In this document: one piece after another, positions 5,312 through 45,258 of the stretch
Numbering within the stretch: position 1 is the stretch's first letter
Layout of the letters: the number at the start of each line of letters is the position of its first letter
Source: a virus
Taxonomy: Duplodnaviria > Caudoviricetes
IMG/VR virus record: IMGVR_UViG_3300020190_000004
DNA: 64,000 nt
Direction: 5' to 3' (one strand)
Notes under the pieces: generated by a model
Told to the model about the DNA's origin: nothing
Databases searched by the model: none
What the model saw: the letters and a program-made list of their open reading frames with translations, nothing else
Translations under genes and position numbers: made by a program

Positions 5312-5656
5312 TTATAGACTATAGAGATTTTCGTTGCTTAAAGATACCTGGTCCGTTGAACTAAGAGGGTGAAGTTTTCTCCAGCCTTTAGCAAAGCCGT
5401 TCTTTATGATTTGTGTATAGTAAGCAAACGGATACTTTGACTTTTCAGGGTTGTAACTTCTCCAGTATTTCACAACATCCATTAGTGCAAAAGCAATACA
5501 ATCTTTACGATCTTCTTCATCTTTATATCTTAGCTTTTTAGAAGCACCTTCTGCCATAAGCATAAGCATTTCAATAGCTCTTGGTGTCAATTCATTTTTT
5601 TCTTTAGATAGAAGAATTTCTTTTCTAAACTCTTCAGGGTTTACATAATTTGCCAT
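5312..5656 (-). CDS. gp55: Late-transcription sigma factor (T4 gp55-like, short)
   Basis: NYVN..EF, D..DCI..A.....KY...YNPEKS..PFAY.TQI..N.F motifs. Confidence 0.85.
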   Translation of the reverse strand: MANYVNPEEFRKEILLSKEKNELTPRAIEMLMLMAEGASKKLRYKDEEDRKDCIAFALMDVVKYWRSYNPEKSKYPFAYYTQIIKNGFAKGWRKLHPLSSTDQVSLSNENLYSL

Positions 5657-5664: not shown

Positions 5665-6294
5665 TTAGTTTGGGGTTCCGGAGGCTGATACTTCAGTTTC
5701 AACGTCAAGACTCTTTAAGTAAGCCGTTAGTTCAGAAACACAGATATCTAAAGAATCAAAGGAAAGTTCCGAGTTTTCCTCAACAGTTTTCTTTAGTTCA
5801 GCTATATCTGAAATGATGCCTTTAACCGAGTCAGACAATCCTGAAACAAATCCTGTTAGTTGGTCGGGTTTATTTTCACCAGTTTTAGGATTTGTTTGGG
5901 TATCGGTCTCAGAATTATATACACCATACTCAATTAGTTTTGGGATCTCAATGTATTTCTTAAGTACCTTGAATTTCTTTGACCCTCCCAGCATGATAGC
6001 AACCTCATCTTGGTCACCGCCGCTGGTGAATTCAACAGCTTTAACAAGGACTTCTTCCCCAGCGCCAGCGCCAGGGAAGTCCTTGGAAAGTTTTCCTTTT
6101 ACATATTCATCGGATTCTTTAAGGCCCACGGTGGCACCGTCGCCTTGAGTCGTTAATTCCAGATCATTGCCCGGTTGAGATTCAGATTTTCTCTTAACAA
6201 CCTTTATATCAGTAGGGATGACTATTTTAGTTGTTCCGTCTTCAAGCTCAATAGTTAAAGTTTTGTCGGCTTGATTAGCCCCTGTGACTATTGC
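5665..6294 (-). CDS. -1 frame continuation of the 6288..7871 gene (probable frameshift-derived C-terminal extension)
   Basis: Frame is open from 6294 to 5665 (209 codons) with no ATG/GTG/TTG before 6129, and is closed by TGA a few codons before the A9 run. Confidence 0.7.
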   Translation of the reverse strand, partial: AIVTGANQADKTLTIELEDGTTKIVIPTDIKVVKRKSESQPGNDLELTTQGDGATVGLKESDEYVKGKLSKDFPGAGAGEEVLVKAVEFTSGGDQDEVAIMLGGSKKFKVLKKYIEIPKLIEYGVYNSETDTQTNPKTGENKPDQLTGFVSGLSDSVKGIISDIAELKKTVEENSELSFDSLDICVSELTAYLKSLDVETEVSASGTPN

Positions 6295-7871
6295 TTTTTT
6301 TTTAAGTACTCGACTTCATCACCAACACCAGCACCTAATCCTTCAGTTACATGAGTAAGCTCAGAAACTTGTTTCTGAATTTTGTAATACTCATCTTTAA
6401 GATTGGAAATCTCTTCATCGATAGCAGAAACCAATTCTTTTATCTCATCGCTTTCACGAATTTCAGTATCAGCTATATTTTCGATTTGTTGCTTTCTTTC
6501 TTCAAGATGTTTGATAGCTGAAAGGTATTCTCCTTTCTCTTCATTTAGTTTGTTAATCTTTGCTTCTTCGTTAACGATAAAAGTATCAAAAGTTAAACCT
6601 AAATCAAAATTAGCAAATTCCAACACTAAGTTACGTGATTGAACCGCGTTACAGTCATTATAGAATTTGCTTTCTTTCATAGCAACATCTACTGTATTGA
6701 TGTATGTCTTATCGCCAAGAACAAAGATATCAGCTCGACGATTAGGATTGCTCTTAGGATAAACCGACTTAACAAAGTCAAGTTCAAAGATTGCGTCCCA
6801 GTTCTCAACGATTTTACCCACCGCTGTAATAACTTCCTTTTCATCAAAGCGGAAGATTCCAGAATTAAGGTATACCGCATGGAATTCATTGATAGTTACT
6901 TTTTTATTATTGATGTAGATTCCTAATCCTTCAGATTCTTCAACAAGTTCTACCTTTTTGTCTTTTGAAAAGATTTTCATGCGATTCTCAGAAACTTCAA
7001 CATTTGGTTGGCTCATGAATGCTGATAAGAAAGTAAAATAGTCAGGTAACTTTTTGTATTCTTCTTCAACAAGAGGGCGCATTTTTTCACCGCTCTTAAC
7101 ATAAGCTTTACCGTTCACAGCAAAGATTTCATCAGATTCGGTAACGATTACCGGAGAATAAACTTTTCCGATGTGAGCGTTATTTATGTTTCCTTTTAAT
7201 TGGAAAGATCTTTCAGATTCAACAACCACATTGTATAAAGATTTGATTGTTGGATCGTAAGCATGTTTGCTTAAACTTTCGATTAACTTAGAACGATTAG
7301 TAGAAGTTCTGCTGTTTAAGTAAGTATCGATGTCTTTTTCTAAACTTGACATGATAAAGTTAGATCTGCTATTCTTTGCTTCGTGAACAGCTTTGTAAAT
7401 CTTAATATCTTCTGCGTATTTCTCGCAGTTAGCTGTAAGAGTATTTAAGCTTTCTTTAATAGCCGGTTCAAAAGAATACGGTGAAAGAACGGAGATTAAA
7501 TTCTCAGCAACCAACCACTCAGGCTGATTTGCCATGCTGCCTAATTTCTCAAGCATGTATAATAAACTTGGGTGTTTAGACAAGTCAGAAGAAGCTGCTG
7601 CCTCTAATACTTTCTTAACTCCTAAGTTATTCATTCCATGAATTCTCTTCTCAATCTCGACGAATTCTCTTACTTCTGATTCTTGTATGTTCTCCAATGC
7701 AGAGATTAGAGATTCTGCTATAGCGTTCTCTGCTTTCGCCGCATCAGCAGGTGAAAGGTTAAGGTAAGAATACTCAGCATGTTTCTTAAGTGCTTCATTA
7801 CAAGCAGCGATAGCATCGGTTGATCCAGATTTAGATATGAATCCCTCAATTCTTGTTTTGATTTTTAACAT
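6288..7871 (-). CDS. Large helical/coiled-coil protein, probably virion-associated
   Basis: 527 aa ORF preceded by GATATATAC; ends in slippery TTA AAA AAA AAG CAA TAG. Confidence 0.75.
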   Translation of the reverse strand: MLKIKTRIEGFISKSGSTDAIAACNEALKKHAEYSYLNLSPADAAKAENAIAESLISALENIQESEVREFVEIEKRIHGMNNLGVKKVLEAAASSDLSKHPSLLYMLEKLGSMANQPEWLVAENLISVLSPYSFEPAIKESLNTLTANCEKYAEDIKIYKAVHEAKNSRSNFIMSSLEKDIDTYLNSRTSTNRSKLIESLSKHAYDPTIKSLYNVVVESERSFQLKGNINNAHIGKVYSPVIVTESDEIFAVNGKAYVKSGEKMRPLVEEEYKKLPDYFTFLSAFMSQPNVEVSENRMKIFSKDKKVELVEESEGLGIYINNKKVTINEFHAVYLNSGIFRFDEKEVITAVGKIVENWDAIFELDFVKSVYPKSNPNRRADIFVLGDKTYINTVDVAMKESKFYNDCNAVQSRNLVLEFANFDLGLTFDTFIVNEEAKINKLNEEKGEYLSAIKHLEERKQQIENIADTEIRESDEIKELVSAIDEEISNLKDEYYKIQKQVSELTHVTEGLGAGVGDEVEYLKKKQ

Positions 7872-7894: not shown

Positions 7895-7903
7895 GTATAT
7901 ATC
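7895..7903 (-). promoter_or_regulatory. Putative late promoter GATATATAC
   Basis: Intergenic, about 23 nt upstream of the ATG at 7871. Confidence 0.6.
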
Positions 7904-7924: not shown

Positions 7925-9466
7925 TCATTGGATTTGAATTTTTCCAATGACAGGTTCTACTTCAATAAGCGTCCCTGTGTGTTGTCCAGTAACTATATTA
8001 TTTATCTCAATGTAATTTTGTCCAAAATCAAAGGAAACTATAACAGAACCGGCGGGTATGCCCAGTCCTGACACAACTTTACCCGTCAAGTCGCCATTTT
8101 GTAAAAGGGTGCCTAATGACGGAAACACATTAGTTATTCTCTTATTAGCAGGCGTTGGTAATGTATTGTCAACATCTCCGGTAAAAGTAACAGTATTTAG
8201 AAGATAGCCAAAAGTCAGTTCGGTATTTGCATCTTCTATCTTAATCTCAATTTCATTAAGAGGTGTTACCCAAAAGTCGGCACCTGAAAAAGTTATAGTT
8301 GCACCGGTAACGCTTCCACTTTGAACTACAGCCTGAATATCTGGCGGCGACGGCGGGTTTACTGGGTTTGGTACCGGTCCAATTACCGACATTTGTATTG
8401 AATCGCCGTTAGTGTATGAAAAGCCTTGGTTTAATATAACAACTGAGTCAACTGAACCAAATACATTTGTAATAGCTCTAATTTTTGCATCCCTGCCGGT
8501 GTCAGAAATAACTGCAAGTTTTTGCGGCTCGCTGTCTATCTCTATTCCGTTGATATCAAAGAATGGAATTTTCCAATCATACGCTCCGTTGTTATTAATG
8601 TTATTGGCAAACTTGACCCATGTAGAAGATCCAAAAAGTCTGTAGTATAGGTTAACTCTTTGTATAGGTCCAGTGTTTGTCCAGGTTATAGGAAGAATTC
8701 CATCTGAAAAGTATTTTTCATTTGCGTTAGGAGTTTCAATTGTAAATCTTGGTGCTACATATCTTTCAGAAGAAGTATCTTGTTGATTAAACCCTGACAC
8801 ACGGTTTGAGTTGCTTCTTTCTGTTGTTGAGTCAAAGACTGGGTAATAAGTTTCAACAGTTATACCAAACTTAACAGTTGTTCTTGCATTTGTCTGGTAA
8901 GTAAATTCAAAAGTTTTGTCTACTGTGTAGTCTTCAGAAAAGCTTGCTTGGCATGGTATTCTTAATCCTCTAAAGTTAACCGAGAATACTTGTACTTTAT
9001 AGAATGTTTCCATGACTGCTTGTTCAATCTTGAAAGCATCTAGGTTGGTGTCTACTTCTACCTCTACATCAAAGTTCATTGTGATAGGCAAAGAGTTTAA
9101 GTAAGCACTAAACGTTTGTAATTGACCGTTTACTTCTTTAACATAATTGCCTCTCACAAAACGGTGAGTCATTTTTGCTGTGTCGATGGTCTTTGCTGTC
9201 ATTGTTGCAATCCCTCTTGGTATTACATCATAGTTTCCGTCAGCGTGACGAGGGTTAATACAATCATTCCACTCTAAAAAGTAGTCTTGTAAGAATCTTT
9301 CATCGCCACCCATGTTATAGAAGAACGGAACGTATACCGTATCTATAGAAGTATCTGATAAGATGTTATCAAAGAAGATTTTGCTGTTAAGCAGGTTAAC
9401 AAACCCTACTATGACAGCTCGTGAATGGACGTTATCGGTGTTGTATTTATGTAAAAATTCTCCCAT
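7925..9466 (-). CDS. Tail sheath stabilizer/completion protein (gp15-like N-terminus) with C-terminal beta-rich Ig-like extension
   Basis: VP..Y....RFL, P.T.NF.V....D...DAFKI.Q.....F pattern in the N-half; TPN..E....G...ITW...G...RVNLYY...N.G.YDW.IP in the C-half. Confidence 0.6.
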   Translation of the reverse strand: MGEFLHKYNTDNVHSRAVIVGFVNLLNSKIFFDNILSDTSIDTVYVPFFYNMGGDERFLQDYFLEWNDCINPRHADGNYDVIPRGIATMTAKTIDTAKMTHRFVRGNYVKEVNGQLQTFSAYLNSLPITMNFDVEVEVDTNLDAFKIEQAVMETFYKVQVFSVNFRGLRIPCQASFSEDYTVDKTFEFTYQTNARTTVKFGITVETYYPVFDSTTERSNSNRVSGFNQQDTSSERYVAPRFTIETPNANEKYFSDGILPITWTNTGPIQRVNLYYRLFGSSTWVKFANNINNNGAYDWKIPFFDINGIEIDSEPQKLAVISDTGRDAKIRAITNVFGSVDSVVILNQGFSYTNGDSIQMSVIGPVPNPVNPPSPPDIQAVVQSGSVTGATITFSGADFWVTPLNEIEIKIEDANTELTFGYLLNTVTFTGDVDNTLPTPANKRITNVFPSLGTLLQNGDLTGKVVSGLGIPAGSVIVSFDFGQNYIEINNIVTGQHTGTLIEVEPVIGKIQIQ

Positions 9467-9470: not shown

Positions 9471-9479
9471 GTATATATC
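9471..9479 (-). promoter_or_regulatory. Putative late promoter GATATATAC
   Basis: Immediately upstream of the ATG at 9466, overlapping the gp46 stop. Confidence 0.5.
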
Positions 9480-11154
9480 ATTCAATCTTTTCTAGCTTGA
9501 CATTGGAAAAACCGTTATTCTTCGAGATTTCTAAACGATAATCAAATATCTCTGTGGGTAATTGACTGTGGTTTATCACAAAGATGTTTAAGTTAAGTTC
9601 TCTACAAGTCTTATGCAAAACTTTTAGAATATGGTAAATACCGTCGCTATCTATAGATGAAAAGATTTCATCGAGGAATATAAGGTTTACCCCAGCAAAT
9701 TTCATTTTCATCAATCGAATAAGAGCGAGCAAAGCTGTAAAGTCAATTTTCTTTCTCTCACCAGTACTTAATTGATCAGGAGATACGTTAAAGCCGAGAT
9801 GTTGTATACTAACTTCAAATTCTTCATTAAAAGAAACCCGGTAGTCCATGTTTAAGTCCTGTAATACTTTACGAATTTCTGAATTAAGCAAAGGCAAGAT
9901 TCTTTTTATAGCAGTTAACTTAACACCTTTATCCCCAAAGATGTCTTCAATGATTTTGTAAAAGTTTGCTTTCTTTTCTTCGATATCTTTGCGATGAATT
10001 GCTTCATCTTTCTTTGTCTTAGAGTCATCGATGATGTTATTAAGCGAAGCTGTTTGACTATCATCAATTACCGATGTGTCAATGTTTTTATGTTCTTGTG
10101 AGAGAGAAGATCTTTGAGTTGAAGCAACGATCTTATTCTTATTCATGGTATCATACATTTCTTGTAGCTTTGCTCTCTTTTCTGACACTTCTCTCTGTGC
10201 AGTGCGAATTTTTTCAATTTCTTCCTCTGCCTCGCGATTCTTTTTAATATATTCCTCAAGAAGAGACTTGTGGTAGTCTGATGTAAGATCGCTTTCGCAA
10301 GTAGGACACTGTCCACCTTCATATAGACTAATCTTTTTATGTCTATCTTTACATTCATACTCAAGGGATAACTTAAGAGAGTCCCAAGAATTAAGAGATT
10401 CTTGGAGCTCTTCATCTTTCTTATTGACATTCGTTAGATATTCAGATGCTTTTTGAATATAAGAATCTAACTTTCGTATCTTTTCTTCTAGTTCTGCTTT
10501 CTTTTCTTCGCCGTCTTCTTTAAGCTTTTCATTGAGATTCTTAAGCTCATTTTGGGAATTTTGTATCGTTCTTTCTAAGACAGAAAGTTCGGTTAAGATG
10601 CTTTCAGCTTGTTCTTTCAAAACCTTTATCTGATACCTTACTTTCCATTTAATAGAGCCCAATATCTCCAAACCAAAAAGTCTGTCTATGATCATACGTT
10701 TATCATGGACCCGCATAGATATAAAACTTTTGAAATCATTTATGGAAAGACTTATCATATTATTGAAAACATAGAACGGTATTCCTAGTATTTCATCTTC
10801 AAGAAATTCTTGCATGTTTTTCTTACCCGCTTGGTCGTATTCTATGCCGTTTACAAACAGCTTGAATACATTAGGTGCTATGCCTCTCTCGATAGTTACC
10901 AATGTAGTTGGATTCTTTTCAAGATTGATTCTACAAAAAGCATTTCCGTTAAAACGATTTGGTATGTCACGCAAATGTTTGTTATCAAGTTTGCCGTAAA
11001 GGCCAAACTTAATTACATCAGATATTGTGCTTTTACCTGCGCCATTAGAACCAACGATCAGATAAAAGTTACCCTGCTGATCGTCAAATGTTATCTTCTG
11101 GGTATTATTTCCATAAGATCCAAAGTTTCTCCATTCTATACTAGTTATTTTCAT
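9478..11154 (-). CDS. gp46: Recombination exonuclease ATPase subunit (gp46/SbcC/Rad50-like)
   Basis: Walker A GSNGAGKST, CPTC zinc hook, LSTGE signature, IFLDEIFSSID, H-loop INH. Confidence 0.95.
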   Translation of the reverse strand: MKITSIEWRNFGSYGNNTQKITFDDQQGNFYLIVGSNGAGKSTISDVIKFGLYGKLDNKHLRDIPNRFNGNAFCRINLEKNPTTLVTIERGIAPNVFKLFVNGIEYDQAGKKNMQEFLEDEILGIPFYVFNNMISLSINDFKSFISMRVHDKRMIIDRLFGLEILGSIKWKVRYQIKVLKEQAESILTELSVLERTIQNSQNELKNLNEKLKEDGEEKKAELEEKIRKLDSYIQKASEYLTNVNKKDEELQESLNSWDSLKLSLEYECKDRHKKISLYEGGQCPTCESDLTSDYHKSLLEEYIKKNREAEEEIEKIRTAQREVSEKRAKLQEMYDTMNKNKIVASTQRSSLSQEHKNIDTSVIDDSQTASLNNIIDDSKTKKDEAIHRKDIEEKKANFYKIIEDIFGDKGVKLTAIKRILPLLNSEIRKVLQDLNMDYRVSFNEEFEVSIQHLGFNVSPDQLSTGERKKIDFTALLALIRLMKMKFAGVNLIFLDEIFSSIDSDGIYHILKVLHKTCRELNLNIFVINHSQLPTEIFDYRLEISKNNGFSNVKLEKIE

Positions 11155-12247
11155 AGGATTTCTTTTCTTCCATTTCTATAAGAGCTTCATGATACAAGCG
11201 GTTGCTCACTTCTTTTAGCTTTTCTTTAATCTGTCCTGTGTAAGGCAAAACATCTACATAATTTTCTATCATTGTAAGTAGACTTATTTCTTGTGATAAG
11301 CCGTCATTGCCAATTTCTTCAACAGATTCAGATTCTTCATCTGTTATGATAACATGATTGATTCTTCTATAGCCTGTAAAGTTCTCAATAAATGATGAGA
11401 ACGGAAACTTAAGGGACCAATGAGGCGTGATTAAGATATCAACAAAGTTATTGTAAAAAAGCTCTTGTAACTCATCAATGCTTTTCTCCATGATCCATTC
11501 TAATCTGTACTTTAAAAACTTGGGGGAAACAACATTTTCCCAGCATTGTTCTTGGTCTGTCTCAAGATCATATAACCAAACTGCTTTAGTATTACCCATA
11601 TCTGAACGAGTAAGTTCATAGGGGGTTCCAAGCATTCTCAAGTTTTTAAGTTTTTGTGAAAAGTGAATGTGACCTGAATAAACCCTGTTGTAACCTACAA
11701 ATATCTCTACATCATTACCTTCTTCTATCTTAGTGTAACGATTAAATGATAAACCTTTCACGTCAGCGTGACAAAACATTACATCAGCAGAATTAGCAGG
11801 ATCTTTAACAATGTCAGATAAATCGTGGTGATCTTCAACCCAAGGTAAGAAAAACATTTTCTTACCGCTAAGCGTTTCAACCATAGTAGGTTCTTCAAAG
11901 ACGGTTATATTTGACATATGTTTGAATATCTTCATGGAGTTAATCTCGTTTGAGTATTTCATAAAGATATCGTGATTACCCACAATTGTGTAAACGGGCA
12001 TGATATTGGTTATGGCCTCCATGATATGAATTGCTTTATTCATTACATAAAGGTTGATTGACTGTCTTGAGTCAAATGTATCACCACAGTGTACTACGAT
12101 ATCGCCCGGTCGACCGTGCTCTTTAAGAAGTGGTATGAATTGATTCATAAAGAAGTTCTCCATGATATCCATCCACTCTCTTGAGTTAGACCTAACCCCA
12201 AAGTGAGTGTCAGACACTAACCATACTCTTTTTGCATCGATTACCAT
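11141..12247 (-). CDS. gp47: Recombination nuclease subunit (gp47/SbcD/Mre11-like)
   Basis: SDTHFG, GDTFD, GNHD, SGHIH metallophosphoesterase motifs. Confidence 0.95.
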   Translation of the reverse strand: MVIDAKRVWLVSDTHFGVRSNSREWMDIMENFFMNQFIPLLKEHGRPGDIVVHCGDTFDSRQSINLYVMNKAIHIMEAITNIMPVYTIVGNHDIFMKYSNEINSMKIFKHMSNITVFEEPTMVETLSGKKMFFLPWVEDHHDLSDIVKDPANSADVMFCHADVKGLSFNRYTKIEEGNDVEIFVGYNRVYSGHIHFSQKLKNLRMLGTPYELTRSDMGNTKAVWLYDLETDQEQCWENVVSPKFLKYRLEWIMEKSIDELQELFYNNFVDILITPHWSLKFPFSSFIENFTGYRRINHVIITDEESESVEEIGNDGLSQEISLLTMIENYVDVLPYTGQIKEKLKEVSNRLYHEALIEMEEKKSYENN

Positions 12248-23925: not shown

Positions 23926-24444
23926 TTATGCTTTTCTGTCATCTAGTCTAAAAGAAGATGTGTACATTCTCTGAGATGGCATATCCAGGTTTGTACCTGC
24001 CATGTCAAAGAACTTGGCAAAATCTGCATTATCTTCTAAAGAGCTGTAGTCAAATCCTAATCGGTCTTTTGGGTCATTTAGATTAGCAAAGATAAAGAAA
24101 GCATTTCCCTTCTCAGAAAAGCCTAATGTGTCAAGGTCGAATTTGCCAGGACAGCAGTCTTCAAGAATCTTTGGAAGAGCGTCAAGTGCTTTTTGTGCAA
24201 AGGCGTATATTTTTGTTTTACGATCGTAGATGGCTTTTGCATTTTCTTGTGCCCAGTCTACTGTATAGTACTTGTCTTTAGCAGCCTCGTTAAGGTCTTC
24301 GCCTTCTTCAAGTGCATCTTCTTTTATAGTGTATTTCTTTCCCTGAAATTCAAACTCTTTTAGACCTTGCTTCTTTGCATTTGCCAAAGCAGCATGAAAT
24401 GCATTCTCGTTTAAGAAATTTTCAAATGATGATATGTGTTTCAT
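23926..24444 (-). CDS. Leader-bearing putative internal head protein
   Basis: Starts MKHISSFENFLNE; internal EDLNE. Confidence 0.7.
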   Translation of the reverse strand: MKHISSFENFLNENAFHAALANAKKQGLKEFEFQGKKYTIKEDALEEGEDLNEAAKDKYYTVDWAQENAKAIYDRKTKIYAFAQKALDALPKILEDCCPGKFDLDTLGFSEKGNAFFIFANLNDPKDRLGFDYSSLEDNADFAKFFDMAGTNLDMPSQRMYTSSFRLDDRKA

Positions 24445-24469
24445 AGTCTCTGATTTTTTTTTGACCAGA

Positions 24470-24478
24470 GTATATATC
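24470..24478 (-). promoter_or_regulatory. Putative late promoter GATATATAC
   Basis: About 25 nt upstream of the ATG at 24444; heads the 20306..24444 island. Confidence 0.6.
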
Positions 24479-24483: not shown

Positions 24484-26286
24484 TTAGATCCTCCCTTCTA
24501 ACCAACGTTTTCTCTTGTCAGCAGAATTTCCAAAGGCAATTTCCATGTATTTGCCAGCTGAACGATCTATGCGAATCTTAAACATCTTGCGTTCTGCCAT
24601 AACCATTTCCCAGTCTTGTATACTCAATGAACCTAACCCTTTAAGATAACGAACATTTTTGTAAGGAGTTCCGCTTTTCTCAAACTCGCCCCACTCATGA
24701 AGAGAATAGAAGTATTGTCTTTTGTTCTTAACTTCAGCAGAAACAAGCGGAGTAATTAAGATATGAAGTTTGCCAGTTTCAATCACTTGTGGAAACCACT
24801 TATAGAACAAGTTAATCACCAACGAAGCGATGTGACCTATTCCATCAGGGTCCCAATCGGTAGAGATGACAACGTTTGAGAATGCACATTTACTTCCGTC
24901 TCGTGGTTCAAGGTTAAGAATGTTCATCAAGTCAATGATTTCATTATTAGAACTCAAGTCACTTAAGTTTCTTGCGTTCTTAATCTTGCCCTTTAACGAA
25001 TACACTGCATCAATCCGCGGATCTCGTTTCTGTAAGATTGAACCCATAGCTGAAGAACCTTCAACTATGAAAAGAGATCCTTTGCTTTGTGAAGGCGGAA
25101 AGTACTTATCGCTTATGCGTTTGCTTGCAGCTTTCTTCTTGTTCTTGATGTTTTTAAGATCTTGTGTTTGAGTTCTTTCATCAATCAGTTTACGAACAGT
25201 TTCGTAAAACTTAGTTTTCTTGAGAGACTGATTAATCTTTTTGTTAAAGTCAGTCAGTAAGTGCTGTATTTCCCAACGACCTGCCGCGTACTTGGTTTTG
25301 TTTTGGTCAGCAAAACGAACCAGCTTAGGTGGAAAGTTAAGAATAAGAAGAGTCTCGTAAAAGTGATGAGCTAATGTATAGTCAAAGATGTCATTCACCC
25401 AGTCAGTAAAAATCTTTTGGTGAATACCCGTACATATAGCGCCGTTTACGAATGAAGCAGATGTTGCATTTTCGTATCGATTCCATATCACAAACATTCC
25501 CATCTTGCCCTTAAACACAATCGCGTCTTCTGGCAAGAATGACTGGTTAAGTTCAAGTTTTGTGTTGTCAAAGAAGAACTCAATCTCCAAGTTACTGATA
25601 ACAGGGTCTTGATTCTTTAAGAACTCCCGAAAGATGAACATGGTGTGTAAGTATTCTTTATCCCAAGTACATCCTTTGAAAATGTCAGTGCGTGGAATGT
25701 ATCTTACAGTAGTACCCGTTTGTGAATTGCGTTTTTTCTTGTCAGTGGTTTCTCGTTTTTTCTCAAAGCGGTTCCACTGAATGTTGTACTCTATTTCATT
25801 GTTAATTGTGGTAATAACAAATTCTTCCGAAAGCATGTTCACAAGAGCAGCACCCACTCCATTAGTACCAATTAAAGAATCATTTGAGTTTTCATTATAG
25901 AAGTTTGAACCAGCTCTTAACATTGACATTGCTGTCTCAACGTTGGATTGCCCTGTCTTTGTGTTTGCCTTTTCAGCGTTAATGAATCCGCCACCAGTGT
26001 CGGTTACTTCTACTTCATTATTTTTTGAATTAATCTTAACGATGATTTTAGGCATTACGCCCTTCATTCTCTTTGCTTCATCAAAAGCATTGTCAACGAT
26101 TTCATTAAACATCTTATAGAATCCTACAGATATGATCTTGTTCTTTGCAACAAGTTTTCCATTCTCCACGATCTGTACGCTTTCTTCAGATTTCTCAACC
26201 GAACCAATATACATGGTTGGTCTGTGTGTCACATGTTCAAAATCTGATAGTGCTACAATTTCTTTGTTAGATTTTTGTTTTGTCAT
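24484..26286 (-). CDS. gp39: DNA topoisomerase II, GyrB-like subunit (ATPase + TOPRIM; T4 gp39+gp60 equivalent)
   Basis: EIVDNAFDE, DTGGG, GTNGVG, VEGSSA, LKGK, TDWDPDG, YLKGLGS. Confidence 0.93.
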   Translation of the reverse strand: MTKQKSNKEIVALSDFEHVTHRPTMYIGSVEKSEESVQIVENGKLVAKNKIISVGFYKMFNEIVDNAFDEAKRMKGVMPKIIVKINSKNNEVEVTDTGGGFINAEKANTKTGQSNVETAMSMLRAGSNFYNENSNDSLIGTNGVGAALVNMLSEEFVITTINNEIEYNIQWNRFEKKRETTDKKKRNSQTGTTVRYIPRTDIFKGCTWDKEYLHTMFIFREFLKNQDPVISNLEIEFFFDNTKLELNQSFLPEDAIVFKGKMGMFVIWNRYENATSASFVNGAICTGIHQKIFTDWVNDIFDYTLAHHFYETLLILNFPPKLVRFADQNKTKYAAGRWEIQHLLTDFNKKINQSLKKTKFYETVRKLIDERTQTQDLKNIKNKKKAASKRISDKYFPPSQSKGSLFIVEGSSAMGSILQKRDPRIDAVYSLKGKIKNARNLSDLSSNNEIIDLMNILNLEPRDGSKCAFSNVVISTDWDPDGIGHIASLVINLFYKWFPQVIETGKLHILITPLVSAEVKNKRQYFYSLHEWGEFEKSGTPYKNVRYLKGLGSLSIQDWEMVMAERKMFKIRIDRSAGKYMEIAFGNSADKRKRWLEGRI

Positions 26287-38393: not shown

Positions 38394-38765
38394 TTATATT
38401 TTTCCTGTTAAGCGTATTCTTTTTTCGTCATCATCAACTAAATGATGTCCTACAACATCTTCAATTACTTCTGCCATTTTCTTAGTCTTATCACCAGCTG
38501 GTGGTGTCTGAATTTCCACAGAACCGTTATAGTAAGTTGGAAGTTTTTTTGCCTTTGCATCAAATCCTGCAGAGTTCAAGGCTTTTGCTATTTCCTCAGC
38601 TTCGTCAAACATAATTGTTCCTATCTCTAAGTGGTCGCGATAGTTTAACAGAGTTATAGTAGAAACTTCATGACCGTTTACTACTTCTCCGAGTTCAATA
38701 CGACTCATGTCTACAAGCTTCTTGCCTTCATTTAAGAAACTTTCAAATGTGTGTAGATGTTTCAT
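38394..38765 (-). CDS. Leader-bearing putative internal head protein
   Basis: Starts MKHLHTFESFLNE. Confidence 0.7.
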   Translation of the reverse strand: MKHLHTFESFLNEGKKLVDMSRIELGEVVNGHEVSTITLLNYRDHLEIGTIMFDEAEEIAKALNSAGFDAKAKKLPTYYNGSVEIQTPPAGDKTKKMAEVIEDVVGHHLVDDDEKRIRLTGKI

Positions 38766-38777
38766 AGCTTACTTGTT

Positions 38778-39215
38778 TTATTCAACTGCAATCTCAACGC
38801 CACCGCTTCCTGTAGAATAAGCGGTAATGCTTATTCGAGAACCGTCTGATAACATTATTCTTACATAAGAATTTTGTCCATCTTCGTCTTCAAGAATAGC
38901 TTTAATCTTCTTTCCTATATGATCCTTTAATGAAGGGTCGGTAGTTCTTGCATCTTCATTAAGCTCATCTTCGTTCAAGCTCTCTTTTACTAGAACCGAT
39001 TGCATACCAAATCTTTCTTTAGCCAATTGTATAGCCATTCTACTTTTTGGCGTATCGTCTAACTCAAAAACTGTAGGCCTTACCTGGTCATATTGGATCT
39101 TATTGCCATCAAGGTCCTTTTTGAACGATGAAACTGCTTTGGAGGCTAGACTAACTGACAGTTTCTTTCCTGAGTTTTCATTTAAGAAGCTTTCAAATGT
39201 GTGTATGTGTTTCAT
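38778..39215 (-). CDS. Leader-bearing putative internal head protein, two domains
   Basis: Starts MKHIHTFESFLNE; internal ESLNEDELNE. Confidence 0.7.
   Translation of the reverse strand: MKHIHTFESFLNENSGKKLSVSLASKAVSSFKKDLDGNKIQYDQVRPTVFELDDTPKSRMAIQLAKERFGMQSVLVKESLNEDELNEDARTTDPSLKDHIGKKIKAILEDEDGQNSYVRIMLSDGSRISITAYSTGSGGVEIAVE
39184..39215. repeat. 32-bp leader repeat copy 2
   Basis: Identical to 23880..23911. Confidence 0.95.
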
Positions 39216-39229
39216 ACTAATTCTATTTT

Positions 39230-39601
39230 TTATTTTTTGCCAAACATATCGGTTTCTCTACTACTTGGTCGTTTTGTTTTGCCAGCTTGTATAATTGATT
39301 CCAATTCATCGTATAGATCTTCGGCTTTTGTTATATCTTTTTTGTCTACTCTAAAGTAACCTTTATTAGTATTCATAAAATAATGGTCATCTTTGTTAGC
39401 AACAAAGAAAGTAGACGCTGGAGAAAAAGCAAAAGCTAAATTGACTGCTCTCACCTGGCCATTAGTAATTTCTATGGTAGAAGAACCACCTTTTAAGAGT
39501 TTTGCAAGTTTATCTAGTATTGCATCACCTGTGTTTTTTGCTCCTTCTAAATAAACAATCTTTTCATTTAAGAAGCTTTCAAATGTGTGTATGTGTTTCA
39601 T
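39230..39601 (-). CDS. Leader-bearing putative internal head protein
   Basis: Internal ATG at 39601 begins MKHIHTFESFLNE; track start 39622. Confidence 0.7.
   Translation of the reverse strand: MKHIHTFESFLNEKIVYLEGAKNTGDAILDKLAKLLKGGSSTIEITNGQVRAVNLAFAFSPASTFFVANKDDHYFMNTNKGYFRVDKKDITKAEDLYDELESIIQAGKTKRPSSRETDMFGKK
39570..39601. repeat. 32-bp leader repeat copy 3
   Basis: Identical to 23880..23911. Confidence 0.95.
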
Positions 39602-39608
39602 TGTAATA

Positions 39609-39905
39609 CTATATTTTTGCAATTGAAGTTACTTTCTTGCCTTTTTTCTCCGCATCATTAGGGTCTGCGTAGTAGAGAAGGTTGGCCTGAATCAGCCTAT
39701 TGAAAATCTCGTCTTTTACAATCTCAAAGTCAATGCTATCAGAAGAGTTTTCCCATGTTTCAGCAACATACTCTGGGTCAATCCATCCATACCCTGCCTT
39801 AATGTTCTTTACCATGTTGGCAAAGTCCAGCTCAAAAGTTTTAACCGCACCTTCATTAAGAGTGGCTTCATTCAAGAAGCTTTCAAATGTGTGTATGTGT
39901 TTCAT
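39609..39905 (-). CDS. Leader-bearing putative internal head protein
   Basis: ATG at 39905 begins MKHIHTFESFLNEATLNE. Confidence 0.7.
   Translation of the reverse strand: MKHIHTFESFLNEATLNEGAVKTFELDFANMVKNIKAGYGWIDPEYVAETWENSSDSIDFEIVKDEIFNRLIQANLLYYADPNDAEKKGKKVTSIAKI
39874..39905. repeat. 32-bp leader repeat copy 4
   Basis: Identical to 23880..23911. Confidence 0.95.
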
Positions 39906-40192
39906 TTTAGATTCCATGTTCTTTTGTCATCCATATCAAGTATTTCAATGCCTAATTGCTTAACAGTATTTTCTAAATTAGATTGTTCTTCCTGATCTCC
40001 GCTTTTTATGTATTCAATAACATCTCTGAATGATTGAAAAAAATGCTTTTCTCGCATCTGTGTTTTTATCTTATCCCAATTGTAATAAATTGCATGAAGC
40101 AGACCGCTAACACCAGCGGAAGTTAGCGCTAATTCATTTATTTCTTGTTCATTCAAGAAGTTTTCGAATGTGCTTATGTGTTTCATGTCCAT
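39902..40192 (-). CDS. Leader-bearing putative internal head protein
   Basis: Starts MDMKHISTFENFLNEQEINE. Confidence 0.7.
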   Translation of the reverse strand: MDMKHISTFENFLNEQEINELALTSAGVSGLLHAIYYNWDKIKTQMREKHFFQSFRDVIEYIKSGDQEEQSNLENTVKQLGIEILDMDDKRTWNLK

Positions 40193-40195
40193 GTA

Positions 40196-40204
40196 GTATA
40201 TATT
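40196..40204 (-). promoter_or_regulatory. Late promoter variant AATATATAC
   Basis: Immediately upstream of the ATG at 40192. Confidence 0.4.
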
Positions 40205-41091
40205 TATGCCAGGTCAGACGGAAAAGGAAGCTTGGCGTCTGTCAGCTTTTGCTTAAACTCCGTCATGATATCTTCCCGCTTATCAGGGAACTTAAAGTCT
40301 CCGCCGTCAATCAGACCACGCAAACTTTCATAGGTCATGATCTCAGAAACCTTGTGACCACCGTTAAAGAGTAGTTCCACTATCTCCTGCGGAACCCGCG
40401 TAATATCTTTGTCAAACGCTCGAAGAAGGTCTGCATTTTTTTTCAGCCCGCGTGCACCTTCAAAGGTTTTGCGTACTTGTACAACTCCCTGATTCATACG
40501 TATCACATATGCCTTGTACTCAGCAGTTTCACCTTTGCCGGTTTGCTTGGTGATCTCGTAAAAGCAATTTCCAATTGCGGCCATCAGCAATATGTTTCTG
40601 TAAGCACCTTTGTACTGTGATTCGCCTGCTCGAAAGTCTGGCGAGTGGTAGATAAACTTACTCCATTCCAGGTCAATCGACATCATTAAATCTACTTGGC
40701 CAATTCCGTTTGCTGAATCCCCGGCAACAGGAACGCCAATGCTTACTTGCTGTAACCCTTTTTGCATTAAGGTGGAATATCCTAAAGACATTAACTTTTC
40801 ATCTAATGCCATCAATGAATTTTCCAAAGAGACTCCTAAGAAACCAGCAATCTTGTCAGCCGAGACCGCGATATCTATATCTCCGGAAGTAGCTTCCGGT
40901 AATTTCTTACCCGCACTTCCAATTACTGCAGCATCATCACCAATTCCTACCAATCCGATTTGAGGAAAAATGTTCTTTACAATCCAATCCACAGTAGGCT
41001 GAACTTGGTTCTGTTGAAAAGGTACAGCATTCTCAATAGAGTTGCCACTTTCAAGAATGAATTGTTCAAACAACTTGACGTACTGCCTCAC
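40204..41091 (-). CDS. Leader-bearing Pol-beta-superfamily nucleotidyltransferase
   Basis: GTG start (M)RQYVKLFEQFILE; hG-S motif VIGSAG, SGDIDIAV, third Asp in QVDLM. Confidence 0.75.
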   Translation of the reverse strand: MRQYVKLFEQFILESGNSIENAVPFQQNQVQPTVDWIVKNIFPQIGLVGIGDDAAVIGSAGKKLPEATSGDIDIAVSADKIAGFLGVSLENSLMALDEKLMSLGYSTLMQKGLQQVSIGVPVAGDSANGIGQVDLMMSIDLEWSKFIYHSPDFRAGESQYKGAYRNILLMAAIGNCFYEITKQTGKGETAEYKAYVIRMNQGVVQVRKTFEGARGLKKNADLLRAFDKDITRVPQEIVELLFNGGHKVSEIMTYESLRGLIDGGDFKFPDKREDIMTEFKQKLTDAKLPFPSDLA

Positions 41092-41624
41092 TAGAATCCT
41101 GCCTTTTGTGCCTCTTTGCGGTCTAACCACTTTGCGTTAACTACGTCGTACCAGATGTTTGAATCACTTGACCCAGGAAGAATAAAGTTAGTCCCGTTAG
41201 AACCTCCGCTTGTGTGCGTGTAAGAGTAGTTTAGGTTTGTCCAAATGCATGGTTCAAACTCAAAGTCTGAACCATCTTCAGCGGTAGCTTTTGAAATCTT
41301 TGGAAAGCTTCCGCCGCCAAAGAAGGAAAGATATACCTCTTTGAACCCATACTGCATGATGCCCAATGCATCACCTGTCACAGGCTTAGATACCAATTTG
41401 ATACGGTTACCCGCGTCTTCAATAGCAAAGTCAGTTGGCCAGTCCACGCCTTTATCCTTAAGGAAAGTTGCTAACGCTGGTCCTGCATTTTCCAGGATAT
41501 CAGCCTTAAGCGTAGCCTCGTCTTTGAATTTGTCATCACTAACGTACTTTACGTTTTCGTTAAGGTCAGCAGCTTCATTCACACCTTTGTTGATGTAAGT
41601 TTCAAAAGTTTTTAAGTGTTTCAT
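41091..41624 (-). CDS. Leader-bearing putative internal head protein
   Basis: Starts MKHLKTFETYINKGVNEAADLNE. Confidence 0.7.
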   Translation of the reverse strand: MKHLKTFETYINKGVNEAADLNENVKYVSDDKFKDEATLKADILENAGPALATFLKDKGVDWPTDFAIEDAGNRIKLVSKPVTGDALGIMQYGFKEVYLSFFGGGSFPKISKATAEDGSDFEFEPCIWTNLNYSYTHTSGGSNGTNFILPGSSDSNIWYDVVNAKWLDRKEAQKAGF

Positions 41625-41883
41625 TGTATTTTGTTATTTTGACTATTAAATCAGTGGTGCCGGGTATCACGCGATGGATAACGCCGGCAGGTATTTTAAT
41701 CACTGTATATATCTTTTCTGGTAGTTGGTTATCAAACTGAAATTGCCAATCATTTTCGTTAAGAGGTTCAACGATTCTGTCCTCTTCATCCCAATGCCAT
41801 TTATATTCTGACCAGTCAGTATTTACAAAAAAAGTCCGTATGACTACGGACTCATTGATTTTTTCTTCTTTATAAGGTTTCAT
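41602..41883 (-). CDS. Small cupin-like protein
   Basis: WHWDEEDR.V...W.FQFD..LP...IP.G..HRV pattern; start at 41883 coupled to the holin stop (TAATG). Confidence 0.6.
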   Translation of the reverse strand: MKPYKEEKINESVVIRTFFVNTDWSEYKWHWDEEDRIVEPLNENDWQFQFDNQLPEKIYTVIKIPAGVIHRVIPGTTDLIVKITKYNETLKNF

Positions 41884-42050
41884 TAAGCTTTGTCTACGAT
41901 TGACCAAATTGTACCAGTTAATGTGATAACACCACCGATGATTTCAGTCACAGTTGTTTCGTCAGTTAAGCCTTTCATTACCACGATACCACCTACGAAT
42001 GTAAGAGTATGACGGATGATACCTAGAATCTGTTCTTTTGTTAGTTTCAT
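41883..42050 (-). CDS. Putative small holin (55 aa, two TM), missed by ORF track
   Basis: Manual translation MKLTKEQILGIIRHTLTFVGGIVVMKGLTDETTVTEIIGGVITLTGTIWSIVDKA; resembles Pam3 gp28-type putative holins. Confidence 0.75.
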   Translation of the reverse strand: MKLTKEQILGIIRHTLTFVGGIVVMKGLTDETTVTEIIGGVITLTGTIWSIVDKA

Positions 42051-42071
42051 TTTTTCTATTTTATTTTTTTT

Positions 42072-42080
42072 GTATATATC
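42072..42080 (-). promoter_or_regulatory. Putative late promoter GATATATAC
   Basis: About 21 nt upstream of the holin ATG at 42050. Confidence 0.6.
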
Positions 42081-42619
42081 TACCAGGGTGCATCGGACTG
42101 AAGTCCTAACTGCTTATTAAAGAGCGTGCTGGCGTAACAAGCCCAGAACCCCGCGGTAGTAGGGTCCATCTTTTTTTGTAAATCGCACTGTTGGCGTGCC
42201 CAGAAAGATGCAGAAGCCACAGGATCGTCATTCTTGATGGAAAGACCCGTGGTGTCTCCCCATTGAATTTGCATTGCCAAGATATTTCCATCTTCATCTT
42301 CTTTCCCGCTGTTGTGATACACCGTAAACTTTTTATCTCCACCACGAAATGGTGTGTCGAGTTCTACGTCAATCATTTTGCCGTCAGGTGTTTCAAACTT
42401 TGCCTTTTTACCCACTTCCAGATTCTTGGCCATCCAAGCAGCTTTATCGGAGAGTATGATGTTATCTTCGTCCCAGTATTTCTTTGTCTCTTCAAAAAGA
42501 TCTTTATAGGCTTGACTGCCTAAACGGTAGACAGAATTGGTTATGTCCAACCCATTTTCCATGTGGTAGCGGAATCCTTCGGAGACCTGGAAGTCTTCAA
42601 ATGTCTTTACGTATTTCAT
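42080..42619 (-). CDS. Leader-bearing protein with conserved phage domain (DUF6321-like)
   Basis: Starts MKYVKTFEDFQVSE; payload KKF.VY...GD..GLSIK.DDP...SF.AR..CD...TAGFW.C. Confidence 0.7.
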   Translation of the reverse strand: MKYVKTFEDFQVSEGFRYHMENGLDITNSVYRLGSQAYKDLFEETKKYWDEDNIILSDKAAWMAKNLEVGKKAKFETPDGKMIDVELDTPFRGGDKKFTVYHNSGKEDEDGNILAMQIQWGDTTGLSIKNDDPVASASFWARQQCDLQKKMDPTTAGFWACYASTLFNKQLGLQSDAPW

Positions 42620-43320
42620 ATCTTAATGCTAAAATGTTCTTTAACTGCTTCTTCAATTCCTAATGCATAGGACCAGATATCTTCGGAAATCTTTTTTTCG
42701 CCAGCTTTATTGAAAGTAATCAGCGGCCAGTAAATAGTATTTTTTGTGATAGCTGCACTCGGGAAAGTCATTTCATAGTACTGTCCGCCCTTTTCACCAA
42801 ACGCATGAACTACTAAGCACTCTCCATAGTACTTACCTATTTCATCTTTTTGCATACAGATACCACCAATGGCTTTTCCTCCAGTTTCTTCTGACCATCT
42901 TGCTGCATTACCAAAGCACTGATTCCTTGTACCACCTGCTTCAATCCATTCTGCTTCAACACTCTTAACCAGTTCATCTAAAATTGCTACAATTACTGCT
43001 TGAATACTGATGAAATTTGAAGATGATATCTTGCCTTCTGCGTCAACTGTGAAATCTTTGAACCATCCTGGTCTTTTAGCCGGATCTTGAGCATTCCAGT
43101 GATTTGCAGATTCTTCAGCGTTCGTCAGAGCCGTTTTTCCCGCAGCTGTGTTTTTCCACTTGCCTGACTTTAGCATTGAGAGCGTTTTTGATCTTATTGA
43201 TGAATCACCCTTTGATGCATAAAATACATTGCCACCTAAGCCTGTGCTATAGACAGTTTCATTCAGATACTGAAATCCTTCAGAGACTTGAAAGTCTTCA
43301 AATGTTTTGACGTATTTCAT
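42616..43320 (-). CDS. Leader-bearing putative internal head protein
   Basis: Starts MKYVKTFEDFQVSEGFQYLNE; first 16 aa identical to the neighbour. Confidence 0.7.
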   Translation of the reverse strand: MKYVKTFEDFQVSEGFQYLNETVYSTGLGGNVFYASKGDSSIRSKTLSMLKSGKWKNTAAGKTALTNAEESANHWNAQDPAKRPGWFKDFTVDAEGKISSSNFISIQAVIVAILDELVKSVEAEWIEAGGTRNQCFGNAARWSEETGGKAIGGICMQKDEIGKYYGECLVVHAFGEKGGQYYEMTFPSAAITKNTIYWPLITFNKAGEKKISEDIWSYALGIEEAVKEHFSIKI

Positions 43321-43742
43321 TTGAACATACTTTTATTGTAGATAACTAATCCTAAGTAAGGATTGTTATTTTTACCTTCTGTTGGATCATAAACGCCATC
43401 AGCCTTCTTTTCTTTTGCCATTTGCATAATTTTTTGCCCACCATATTTTTGCGCGTCGGGGACTAATAAAATTTTAGCATCATTAGAAAGTTCATATTCA
43501 TCCGAACCAGCATAATAATCATCAGATTCATAATGGGCCGAACTGTCTGCAGTAACTGAAAAGTAGCTTCCTTTCCCTAAGACCGAACCCATAGTATCCA
43601 TATCTTCATCTCCGCTTTCATACTCAAAAAAAGCCTTTTCTAACTTACCAGAATCCGTAGTTAGGTATTTCTTTTTGAATTCAGCACCTGTAATTAGTTC
43701 TGATTCATTCATAAAACTTTCGTATGTCTTTACGTATTTCAT
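43317..43742 (-). CDS. Leader-bearing protein, possible ADP-ribosyltransferase-like fold
   Basis: Starts MKYVKTYESFMNE; GKGSYFS....SAHY, L...AKIL, ADGV...LVIYN pattern. Confidence 0.55.
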   Translation of the reverse strand: MKYVKTYESFMNESELITGAEFKKKYLTTDSGKLEKAFFEYESGDEDMDTMGSVLGKGSYFSVTADSSAHYESDDYYAGSDEYELSNDAKILLVPDAQKYGGQKIMQMAKEKKADGVYDPTEGKNNNPYLGLVIYNKSMFK

Positions 43743-43748
43743 TCTAAT

Positions 43749-44117
43749 TTATTTATTCATCTCTTGAGTCTTCTTCTTTAACTCTTCGAGAAAGTTTGTC
43801 CATATCACATTAGCAGCTTTCAGGTTTTTCTTCTTTTCCGGGTCCTTGGTCCTTTCAATAGCAACCTTTCCACGCTGCTGCATCACCAAGGCAGCTTGCA
43901 CCTTGTGCGCATGCTCTCGGTCAATGCCTTTAATAATCTCAATGCCTTTTTCCGCCGTCTCAGCGTCTTTGAAGCCCAAGCCATGAATTGTGCCTTCTGG
44001 ATCCTCGTCAGTGTACAAATCCGAGTGCTTGCTTGAACCGGCTGGTTGACCTGGTTTTCTAGGGGTTCTTTTATCAGCTTCCGCAATCCAAGATTCGTAT
44101 GTCTTTACGTATTTCAT
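43749..44117 (-). CDS. Leader-bearing conserved phage protein
   Basis: Starts MKYVKTYESWIAE; HSDLYTDEDP.GTI.GLGFKD motif. Confidence 0.7.
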   Translation of the reverse strand: MKYVKTYESWIAEADKRTPRKPGQPAGSSKHSDLYTDEDPEGTIHGLGFKDAETAEKGIEIIKGIDREHAHKVQAALVMQQRGKVAIERTKDPEKKKNLKAANVIWTNFLEELKKKTQEMNK

Positions 44118-44154
44118 TTTTGGTTAGCGCGCTTTGTATTTTTTGTCATTCACT

Positions 44155-44658
44155 TTAAGAAAGCAATTTAATAGCTTTCGGTGGTATCTTGCCCAGATAT
44201 ACAATTTCATCCGATTGCTTGTAGTAATCATCTCTTGATATCTTTTTATCAGCTTTTACATCAATCATTAGTTTAGGTGGTATCTCAATTCCTATTGAAA
44301 ATAAATTGGGATCTAGTTGTGTACCGTCTATCTGCAACAATACTCCATCATACTCGTATCTACGCGGTAAGTAATGAAAACTCACAATATCTGATACATT
44401 GTCCAAAGATGACAGCCAAACTCCTTCGAACAATTCACCTTTCAATCCTCCTCCGTGAGTACCAGCTTTTGGGCGAGAGGGTATCAATCCTTCCTTTTCT
44501 ACCTTATCATAGTAAGCTTGACGCATCACTAAATGGTATAAAGGCTGTTTTGTGTTAAAAGGTTCATCAGATTGGATAGATTGCAAATAATCTAACCCAA
44601 CTCGCATATCTTTATTGCCTTCATCCAAGAAGCTCTCGTATGTCTTTACCCACTTCAT
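44155..44658 (-). CDS. Leader-bearing ADP-ribosyltransferase/Tpt1-like fold protein
   Basis: Starts MKWVKTYESFLDE; LYH...EGL.P, GVWLSS, VLLQID, EIVY.G.IPP..I. Confidence 0.6.
   Translation of the reverse strand: MKWVKTYESFLDEGNKDMRVGLDYLQSIQSDEPFNTKQPLYHLVMRQAYYDKVEKEGLIPSRPKAGTHGGGLKGELFEGVWLSSLDNVSDIVSFHYLPRRYEYDGVLLQIDGTQLDPNLFSIGIEIPPKLMIDVKADKKISRDDYYKQSDEIVYLGKIPPKAIKLLS
44626..44658. repeat. 33-bp leader repeat, second subfamily, copy 1
   Basis: CAAGAAGCTCTCGTATGTCTTTACCCACTTCAT, identical at 45997..46029. Confidence 0.95.
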
Positions 44659-44951
44659 CTCTTGCTGATCTTGTTACTTGAAATGGCTCTTTGCCTGCTA
44701 CACTTAAACCTGGCTATCTCTTCGTCTCTCTTGTGTAGGTGTTTCTGACTTACACCGCTGTTAACACGCTCCCTCCAAAGATTAAAACTTTTTCTCTTTA
44801 ATTCAGCACGCATCAACTTAATAGTTTCAGATTCGCTGAGACCAAACTGAGCCTTGATTGCCTCAAAAGGTGTTCTGTCCTCCCACGCCATTTCTATGAT
44901 GCGATCTACATTCTCACTTGATATGCTCTTGTATGTCTTTACGCATTTCAT
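44655..44951 (-). CDS. TIGR03643/DUF2805-like protein with degenerate leader
   Basis: DRIIEMAWEDRTPFEAI..QFGL.E...I.LMR..LK..SF.LWR.RV; preceded by MKCVKTYKSISSE. Confidence 0.8.
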   Translation of the reverse strand: MKCVKTYKSISSENVDRIIEMAWEDRTPFEAIKAQFGLSESETIKLMRAELKRKSFNLWRERVNSGVSQKHLHKRDEEIARFKCSRQRAISSNKISKR

Positions 44952-45253: not shown

Positions 45254-45258
45254 ATTTC

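Follow-up and report, generated by a model that had tools for sequence, protein, structure and literature searches.

The window analysed here, 64,000 nucleotides of IMG/VR virus record IMGVR_UViG_3300020190_000004 (Duplodnaviria; Caudoviricetes), belongs to an uncultured giant phage of lake water that is related to T4, with nearly all genes on the minus strand. One of these genes encodes a protein of 527 amino acids (aa) and stops one codon past a run of nine A residues (A9), where the −1 frame is open for a further 209 codons. The locus therefore raises the question whether the gene makes the 527-aa protein alone, or whether a fraction of its products passes into the −1 frame at the A9 run and gains a C-terminal extension. 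As described below, the conservation of the run and of the frame offset, the constraint on the nucleotides themselves, and a folded domain that is split by the frame change make it highly probable that the site is recoded and that two proteins are derived from one gene.

The target gene (7871..6288, minus strand) reads GAG TAC TTA AAA AAA AAG CAA TAG at its 3′ end, with the A9 run at 6303-6295, the following G at 6294, and the TAG stop codon at 6290-6288. The −1 frame around the junction reads W C W stop stop S R V L K K K A I V T G A N Q..., the two consecutive TGA codons shutting this frame 7-8 codons before the junction. Past the junction, it is open for 209 codons, from GCA at 6294 to AAC at 5668, and is closed by TAA at 5667-5665; the earliest ATG, GTG or TTG within it is a GTG at 6129. 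The conceptual products are a short form of 527 aa and a long form of 735 aa (526 + 209). The gene end, the position of the run, the −1 frame and the two product lengths had been proposed in a first-pass annotation made from the letters alone, and all of them agreed with our reading and translation of the sequence. An A9G string by itself is not statistically rare (1 match in 64 kb versus 2.65 expected); the run at the recoding site is the only coding A/T run of at least nine in the window.

The homologue search covered 5.8 billion proteins and gave about 75 clusters, almost all of 516-551 aa, and DNA was retrieved for 19 IMG/VR loci and 26 metagenome loci. The loci of 44-91% protein identity whose record reaches the 3′ end of the gene made up 31 distinct sequence contexts. 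All 31 carry NNA AAA AAA AAG followed by a zero-frame stop 0-2 codons later, and all 31 have a −1 open reading frame (ORF) without a start codon near its beginning, which is 160-217 codons long where the contig reaches its end. The heptamer A AAA AAG, with the overlapping A AAA AAA, is in zero-frame phase in every context, and KKK plus at most two residues forms the C-terminus in 68 of the 70 protein clusters of the clade. Conservation of the A-run and frame offset, on which the first-pass annotation had made its proposal depend, thus extends to all close and mid-distance homologues.

The constraint was also evident at the nucleotide level. In 28 full-length sequences, 73 columns hold a conserved residue with degenerate codons; the codon is the same throughout in only six of these, half of which are the consecutive AAA AAA AAG, while the remaining conserved Lys columns have AAA and AAG mixed. 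The ten bases of A9G form the only fully invariant block across the alignment from −45 to +80. The run comprises at least nine A's in 31/31 contexts, whereas a slippery heptamer needs six, and the codon before the Lys codons ends in A in all of them, though TTA makes up only 35% of Leu codons. Judged from these alignments, conservation of the site is far beyond chance. In a quick maximum-likelihood tree, the root of which was not established, the run-bearing sequences were split from nine in-frame homologues by a branch with 99% support, and the simplest reading would be that the interrupted state had one origin and has been retained down to about 40% identity.

The first-pass annotation had named a homopolymer error as its alternative, that is, a single continuous 735-aa gene broken by sequencing or assembly. 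A9 runs carry this risk in general, and one relative (contig L023, JGI 3300008953) has exactly such errors, but the same out-of-frame state is found in dozens of independent assemblies from different projects, always with the stop 0-2 codons past the run. Moreover, lineages with A9 (TTA, CTA or TCA before the Lys codons) and lineages with A10 (GAA before) require the identical −1 shift, and a miscalled run length therefore cannot produce the pattern. Logan contigs of three further lake-water runs (X9, X10 and X12) span 6295-6303 without an indel, as A9. With A9 in three runs and the break repeated in 31 contexts and 68/70 clusters, the sequencing-error explanation is effectively refuted and was given a negligible chance. 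Contig L023 has one extra base in three separate homopolymers (T5 to T6, A9 to A10, and A8 to A9); owing to these miscalls, public protein collections contain a spurious in-frame fusion, P0086, which was accordingly rejected as a natural in-frame close relative.

Phase variation at the DNA level would give a similar picture, in that replication slippage would produce mixed A9 and A10 genomes and only the A10 genomes would yield the long form. Homopolymers are indeed prone to mutation, A8 variants occur in two lineages (see below), and the contigs of a fourth run, X14, end at the A-run. Nevertheless, the consensus assemblies in 31/31 contexts need the same shift, A9 was recovered from three runs, and the only in-frame record is the artefact P0086. 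That the out-of-frame state has been maintained over the long term is an argument that both forms are required from each genome, and we regard phase variation as improbable.

At the protein level, the extension is conserved: a 13-sequence alignment has a mean column identity of 60% and contains the invariant motifs PGNDLE, TQ.DG and L.E.GVYNSE.D...N.KT.EN.P. The same C-terminal modules are found in one continuous ORF in distant homologues (36% identity or less), which comprise P0074, P0097, P0098, P0102, P0104, P0123, loci L045-L047 and the 462-kb phage LR756500; for a Lak megaphage homologue the comparison covered the reading frame only, which is likewise a continuous ORF, of more than 1200 aa. 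In-frame ancestors or relatives of the interrupted gene thus exist. Continuous ORFs among the homologues had been held in advance to speak against recoding. They occur only in these distant relatives and not in closer ones, and since they show that the extension belongs to the protein, they support the recoding reading.

The frame change falls inside a folded domain. The target segment GDEVEYLKKK, continued across the junction by AIVTGANQADKTLTIELEDGTTKIVIP, aligns with in-frame barrels of the distant relatives such as GDKIKLKNGAIGSVINVNETDKEVIVSMEDGNTVSIP. An AlphaFold model of a read-through relative, built with an alignment including in-frame distant homologues, contained a first barrel (barrel 1) of five strands with a predicted local distance difference test score (pLDDT) of 90-94, the first strand preceding KKK and four following it (57-60, 63-70, 76-80, 86-90 and 94-98, pLDDT above 90). 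Comparison of barrel 1 with the PHF19 Tudor, NusG KOW and Spt5 KOW domains gave Z scores of 7.6-8.1 and root-mean-square deviations of 1.2-2.2 Å over 46-54 residues, a Tudor/KOW/SH3-like likeness that shows fold only. Model and alignment therefore agree with the earlier suggestion that the joined sequence forms one SH3/KOW-like barrel, as they give a single small beta-barrel spanning the junction. In the AlphaFold 2 (AF2) model of the short form (mean pLDDT 80.8), a helical N-domain (residues 1-221) is followed by a beta-rich middle (232-407) and a long helical hairpin (429-506), and the last 18 residues are disordered. Because barrel strand beta1 precedes KKK and these last residues are disordered, the short form, as modelled, ends in an orphan beta-strand, and the frame change is located in the beta1-beta2 turn.

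Beyond barrel 1, the extension contains a near-invariant linker (invariant residues P41, G42, N43, L45, E46, Q50, D52, G53, V56 and E60 in the extension alignment), barrel 2, the GVYNSE motif, which is the best-conserved part of the extension, and a helical tail. Barrel 2 is also C-terminal in the in-frame homologues, including LR756500, and is missing from the L005/L006 lineage and from L052. In the divergent L052 (P0072), the site reads TCA AAA AAA AGT TAA (A8) and opens a short −1 extension of ~105 aa, which is without both barrels yet keeps the GVYNSE motif and the helical tail. As these two are retained in the barrel-less L052, the function of the extension may centre on them. Ahead of GVYNSE stands an invariant L-x-E similar to the L-N-E that ends the phage's own capsid-targeting leaders; speculatively, it could be a T4-type prohead-protease site, and the long form might then undergo processing in the prohead. 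Such MKH(I/V)KTFESFLNE-like leaders, similar to the T4 capsid-targeting sequence, are found at the start of about 20 otherwise unrelated ORFs in 38394-50646 (minus strand) and are absent from the target gene. At the other end of the protein, the N-terminal helical domain is duplicated in tandem in a sub-lineage consisting of L050/L051 (P0034) and L053 (P0032), the proteins being 737 and 768 aa long.

These features also bear on whether recoding is needed at all, since the extension could be translated alone, from a non-canonical start or by reinitiation, or could be a decaying remnant of an ancestral C-terminus. Gene callers do pick up fragments of the extension with internal starts, for example from the GTG at 6129, and such fragments are all that they pick up. 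The internal starts, however, are not conserved in position or presence (L005/L036 have none), whereas the first 30 codons at least, ahead of any start, are conserved and complete a barrel begun in the upstream frame. The column identity, the invariant motifs and the lack of stops across a deep clade are incompatible with decay. Independent translation or decay of the extension is thus very improbable.

Regarding the mechanism, slippage by RNA polymerase and slippage by the ribosome yield an identical product (...LKKKAIV...), and the first-pass annotation had left both open. The present evidence leans toward RNA polymerase without deciding the matter; we give polymerase slippage as the main mechanism slightly better than an even chance and favour it over the ribosomal route. 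T4-type phages transcribe their late genes with the host polymerase. In the proposed scheme, the gene would lie in a late-expressed operon, and standard decoding would stop one codon past the run to give the 527-aa form. The host RNA polymerase would slip on the 9-10 T template run and add one A to part of the late mRNAs, and ordinary translation of these mRNAs would read straight through. This fraction of the products would go on in the −1 frame, complete the Tudor/KOW-like barrel, and acquire the linker, barrel 2, the GVYNSE..NPKTGEN motif and the helical tail, for a total of 735 aa. Ribosomal −1 slippage on A AAA AAA or A AAA AAG could add a minor contribution. We infer the production of both forms, their ratio, the kind of slippage and the late timing from the sequence comparisons.

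Polymerase slippage is favoured, first, because the run exceeds the six A's of the heptamer in 31/31 contexts and the preceding codon always ends in A, and because coding runs of at least nine are otherwise absent from the window. Second, conserved RNA structure is lacking both before and after the run. RNAalifold with 26 sequences over −45 to +80 found zero conserved pairs, and single-sequence folds were weak and dissimilar (−10 kcal/mol for 60 nucleotides (nt) in the target). A weak hairpin 3′ of the heptamer had been pointed out earlier; a marginal fold does exist there, but it is not conserved and a stimulatory role is unsupported. An upstream Shine-Dalgarno-like stimulator was not found either, as the GGTGAT-like stretch ~16 nt upstream varies among relatives (AACGAT, GACGAT and GGAGAT). 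Third, the phage does not use Shine-Dalgarno sequences: Shine-Dalgarno-like tetramers were not enriched upstream of 67 gene starts (9% versus 13% background). Such an absence is typical of Bacteroidota-infecting phages, and together with the Tenacibaculum jumbo phage and Lak megaphage relatives it suggests that the host is probably a member of Bacteroidota; on the missing Shine-Dalgarno motifs and the fold relatives in Tenacibaculum phages, the Flavobacteriia are a likely group.

Fourth, runs of nine A/T induce highly efficient slippage of bacterial RNA polymerase in vivo, which is exploited by Thermus dnaX (PMC5009743). Finally, one recorded arrangement in the family would be servable only by RNA slippage. 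In L050/L051 (P0034), the run is A8 (CTA AAA AAA AGC) and the extension lies in the +1 frame, which is out of reach for a −1 ribosomal shift and would be reached by the loss of one A or the gain of two. With A9, P0034 would read AAG CAA CGG TAG like the rest of the family.

Several observations weigh against polymerase slippage as the main mechanism. The A8/+1 lineage is known from two records that may share one sample, and it may be a miscall. In 28/28 sequences, AAG serves as the last Lys codon, though AAG accounts for only 29% of Lys codons, and a pure slippage model does not require this invariant minor codon. In the zero frame, the run is always phased as A AAA AAG, which in bacteria is the heptamer most prone to shifting. 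No tRNA genes were found in the 64-kb window; a related 238-kb IMG/VR contig (G001), which holds a locus with the same A9 site (L020), gave 13 tRNA matches, 12 of which were named by Aragorn in five loci (L056-L060). Among the tRNAs named in these scanned loci were two tRNA-Lys(UUU) and one tRNA-Leu(UAA), with no tRNA-Lys(CUU), a set that would favour ribosomal slippage on AAG. In addition, no RNA run was found to contain the stretch, and the evidence for recoding consists of assembled DNA contigs and protein comparison.

These points would fit dnaX-type −1 ribosomal frameshifting as the main route, in which tRNA-Lys would slip back one base on A AAA AAG or A AAA AAA without stimulators, as in lambda G/GT. 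In favour of it are the correct phase of the heptamer in 31/31 contexts, the invariant AAG, the two tandem heptamers inside the A9 run, the tRNA-Lys set of the related phage, and the place of A AAA AAG among the most efficient motifs in E. coli (PMC4066793). On the other hand, no hairpin, pseudoknot or Shine-Dalgarno stimulator is conserved, and unstimulated motifs reach only 2- to 10-fold over a background of ~0.05% in E. coli (PMC4066793), so that the long form would be a minor species on this route. The ribosomal route also leaves the conserved extra A's upstream of the heptamer unexplained and could not be used by the A8/+1 lineage, and RNA polymerase would in any case slip on an A9 run (PMC5009743). 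We consider ribosomal frameshifting as the main route possible but rather unlikely; both slippage processes may contribute.

Polymerase slippage at this site has its closest counterpart in dnaX of Thermus thermophilus, where tau and gamma are produced by transcriptional slippage on an A9 run (PMC5009743). The two share a coding A9 run, the lack of RNA stimulators, two N-terminally identical products and nearby stops in the alternative frame (PMC5009743). They differ in direction, as the DNA frame gives the long product and slippage the short one in Thermus, whereas the phage gene encodes the short product directly and reaches the long one by the shift; they also belong to different gene families, the present one being a phage late gene with a proposed slippage. 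E. coli dnaX has the identical heptamer in the same phase with Lys-Lys decoding, and an upstream Shine-Dalgarno sequence and a downstream hairpin are needed for its 50% efficiency. These stimulators are not conserved in the phage gene, and the dnaX shift truncates the product while the phage shift extends it.

Among phage proteins, T7 10A/10B are structural isoforms made by −1 frameshift. Isoforms of the major head protein of Lactobacillus phage A2 are likewise ascribed to a −1 frameshift (Garcia et al. 2004, as cited in PMC10885494). In common with these, the target is a late phage gene with a putative major short and minor C-terminally extended form on a common N-terminal body; unlike them, it is not an identified capsid protein, and its extension is not short but has 209 aa with folded domains. 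The lambda G/GT pair is similar in that a conserved site recodes a phage late gene into the −1 frame close to its 3′ end, giving two forms in a fixed ratio without strong stimulators. The target, however, is not beside the tape-measure gene, is 527 aa rather than about 140 aa long, and lies between the 513-aa gene and the gp55-, gp4- and gp2-like genes, with gp46/47-like genes also among its neighbours; as the first-pass annotation had proposed, it is not a member of a tail-assembly-chaperone pair.

The features of the locus are listed in Table 1. In the order of transcription, the gp47-like gene, the gp46-like gene and the 513-aa gene precede the target, and the gp55-like late sigma factor gene, a gp4-like head closure gene, a gp2-like DNA end protector gene and the portal gene follow it. 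The 513-aa upstream neighbour was compared with the target as a possible paralogue and rejected. No terminator-like site was found within the extension (5665-6294). The window contains the octamer GATATATA, which resembles a late promoter, 10 times (2.05 expected), in each case on the minus (coding) strand; besides the copy ahead of the target, there are copies just upstream of the portal gene (3866-3859) and of the 513-aa neighbour (9479-9472). The late promoter named in the first-pass annotation is plausible on this motif evidence, and late expression of the target is supported without being proved. The sole other coding-strand A9 run is intergenic (24454-24462, between ORFs 23926-24444 and 24484-26286) and adjoins a GATATATA motif (24471-24478).

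Table 1. Features of the recoded gene and its surroundings in the 64-kb window.
Feature	Position	Strand	Basis or remark
SbcD/gp47-like gene	11141-12247	-	genomic context
SbcC/gp46-like gene	9478-11154	-	genomic context
513-aa gene	7925-9466	-	sub-threshold Pfam match to T4 gp15 tail sheath stabiliser (E 4.4e-4; 19.9 bits versus cut-off 25)
Late-promoter-like octamer GATATATA, 25 nt upstream of target ATG	7896..7903	-	motif count
Zero-frame ORF, 527-aa short form (P0001)	6288..7871	-	ORF list, translation, AF2 model
Barrel 1, Tudor/KOW/SH3-like; beta1 (EVEY) in zero frame, beta2-beta5 in −1 frame, KKK in beta1-beta2 turn	6193..6317	-	model of read-through relative, alignment
Recoding site A9 + G, zero-frame reading (TT)A AAA AAA AAG	6294..6303	-	invariant in 31 distinct contexts
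−1 frame extension, 209 codons + TAA, without own start codon	5665..6294	-	translation, 13-sequence alignment
Linker KK(A/K)SE.QPGNDLE..TQ.DG.TVG.KE, near-invariant, predicted disordered (pLDDT 39-52)	6106..6192	-	alignment, model
Barrel 2, second small beta-barrel (pLDDT 89-93)	5938..6105	-	model, alignments
Motif L-x-E-x-G-V-Y-N-S-E-x-D-x3-N-x-K-T-x-E-N-x-P, invariant columns L120 to P143	5863..5937	-	alignment
C-terminal helical tail of long form	5668..5862	-	alignment and model (partly modelled, low confidence)
gp55-like late sigma factor gene, starts 8 nt past extension stop	5312..5656	-	phrog_234, E 2.9e-13

The stop of the extension is followed within 0-10 nt by the start codon (ATG) of a 114-aa gp55-like gene (MANYV.PEE..) in 26 distinct loci. 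A comparable arrangement is known from Shigella spa13/spa32, in which transcriptional slippage gives a C-terminal extension that abuts the next gene and influences its expression (PMC5009743); in the phage, a coupling to the gp55-like gene is a hypothesis only. Because the phage uses no Shine-Dalgarno sequences and the extension stops so close to the late sigma gene, the recoding site could act as a regulatory valve: only ribosomes that enter the −1 extension would reach the gp55-like ATG, and the slippage frequency of the transcript made from the late promoter would set late sigma synthesis by termination-reinitiation. If this were true, the valve would form a feedback link between the behaviour of RNA polymerase on the A-run and the supply of the factor that programs that polymerase. 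Tudor/KOW-like barrels share their fold with RNA-polymerase-binding domains (NusG KOW and UvrD/PcrA Tudor), which, as part of the same idea, would agree with a role linked to transcription. Phage genes are commonly spaced tightly, and we see the valve, and with it the transcription-linked role of the barrel, as a long shot.

The family itself matched no characterised protein family by sequence or fold (Pfam, PHROG, PDB and structure libraries). Searches of PHROGs and Pfam with the short form, the extension and the distant homologues gave nothing significant, the Pfam matches of P0074 to DUF4314 and SH3-C_UBE2O being below the cut-offs. A hidden Markov model of the family had no match among PDB sequences, and the model of the 527-aa form had none against PDB in Foldseek; VIA-align returned a generic helical hairpin only, and the matches from AFDB clusters and the ESM Atlas were all either unnamed or implausible. 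Structure matches in BFVD were to uncharacterised phage proteins, including those of the Tenacibaculum jumbo phages PTm1 and pT24. In the phage collection, blastn with the locus and tblastn with the extension yielded no match, and tblastn with the short form matched only Lak megaphages and LR756500, at 25-29% identity. A full-text literature search found no earlier description of this protein family.

The class of mechanism is known, while the gene family, the deep conservation of the site across a large clade of freshwater giant phages, and the position of the frame change within a domain are new as far as the literature search shows. The evidence for recoding is unusually clean, in that a conserved run and frame offset, constraint at the nucleotide level and a folded domain split by the frame change are accompanied by in-frame relatives as a natural control. 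Since the site has no RNA stimulator and the probable Bacteroidota host does without Shine-Dalgarno pairing, it lends itself well to telling slippage by RNA polymerase from slippage by the ribosome. Current gene calls in at least 70 protein clusters of freshwater giant T4-like phages consist of a 527-aa 'hypothetical protein' with truncated or missing downstream ORFs, and recognition of the recoding site recovers the true long product together with its arrangement of domains. With relatives in Lak megaphages and Tenacibaculum jumbo phages, the protein is an uncharacterised late protein conserved across these phages and is worth functional study.

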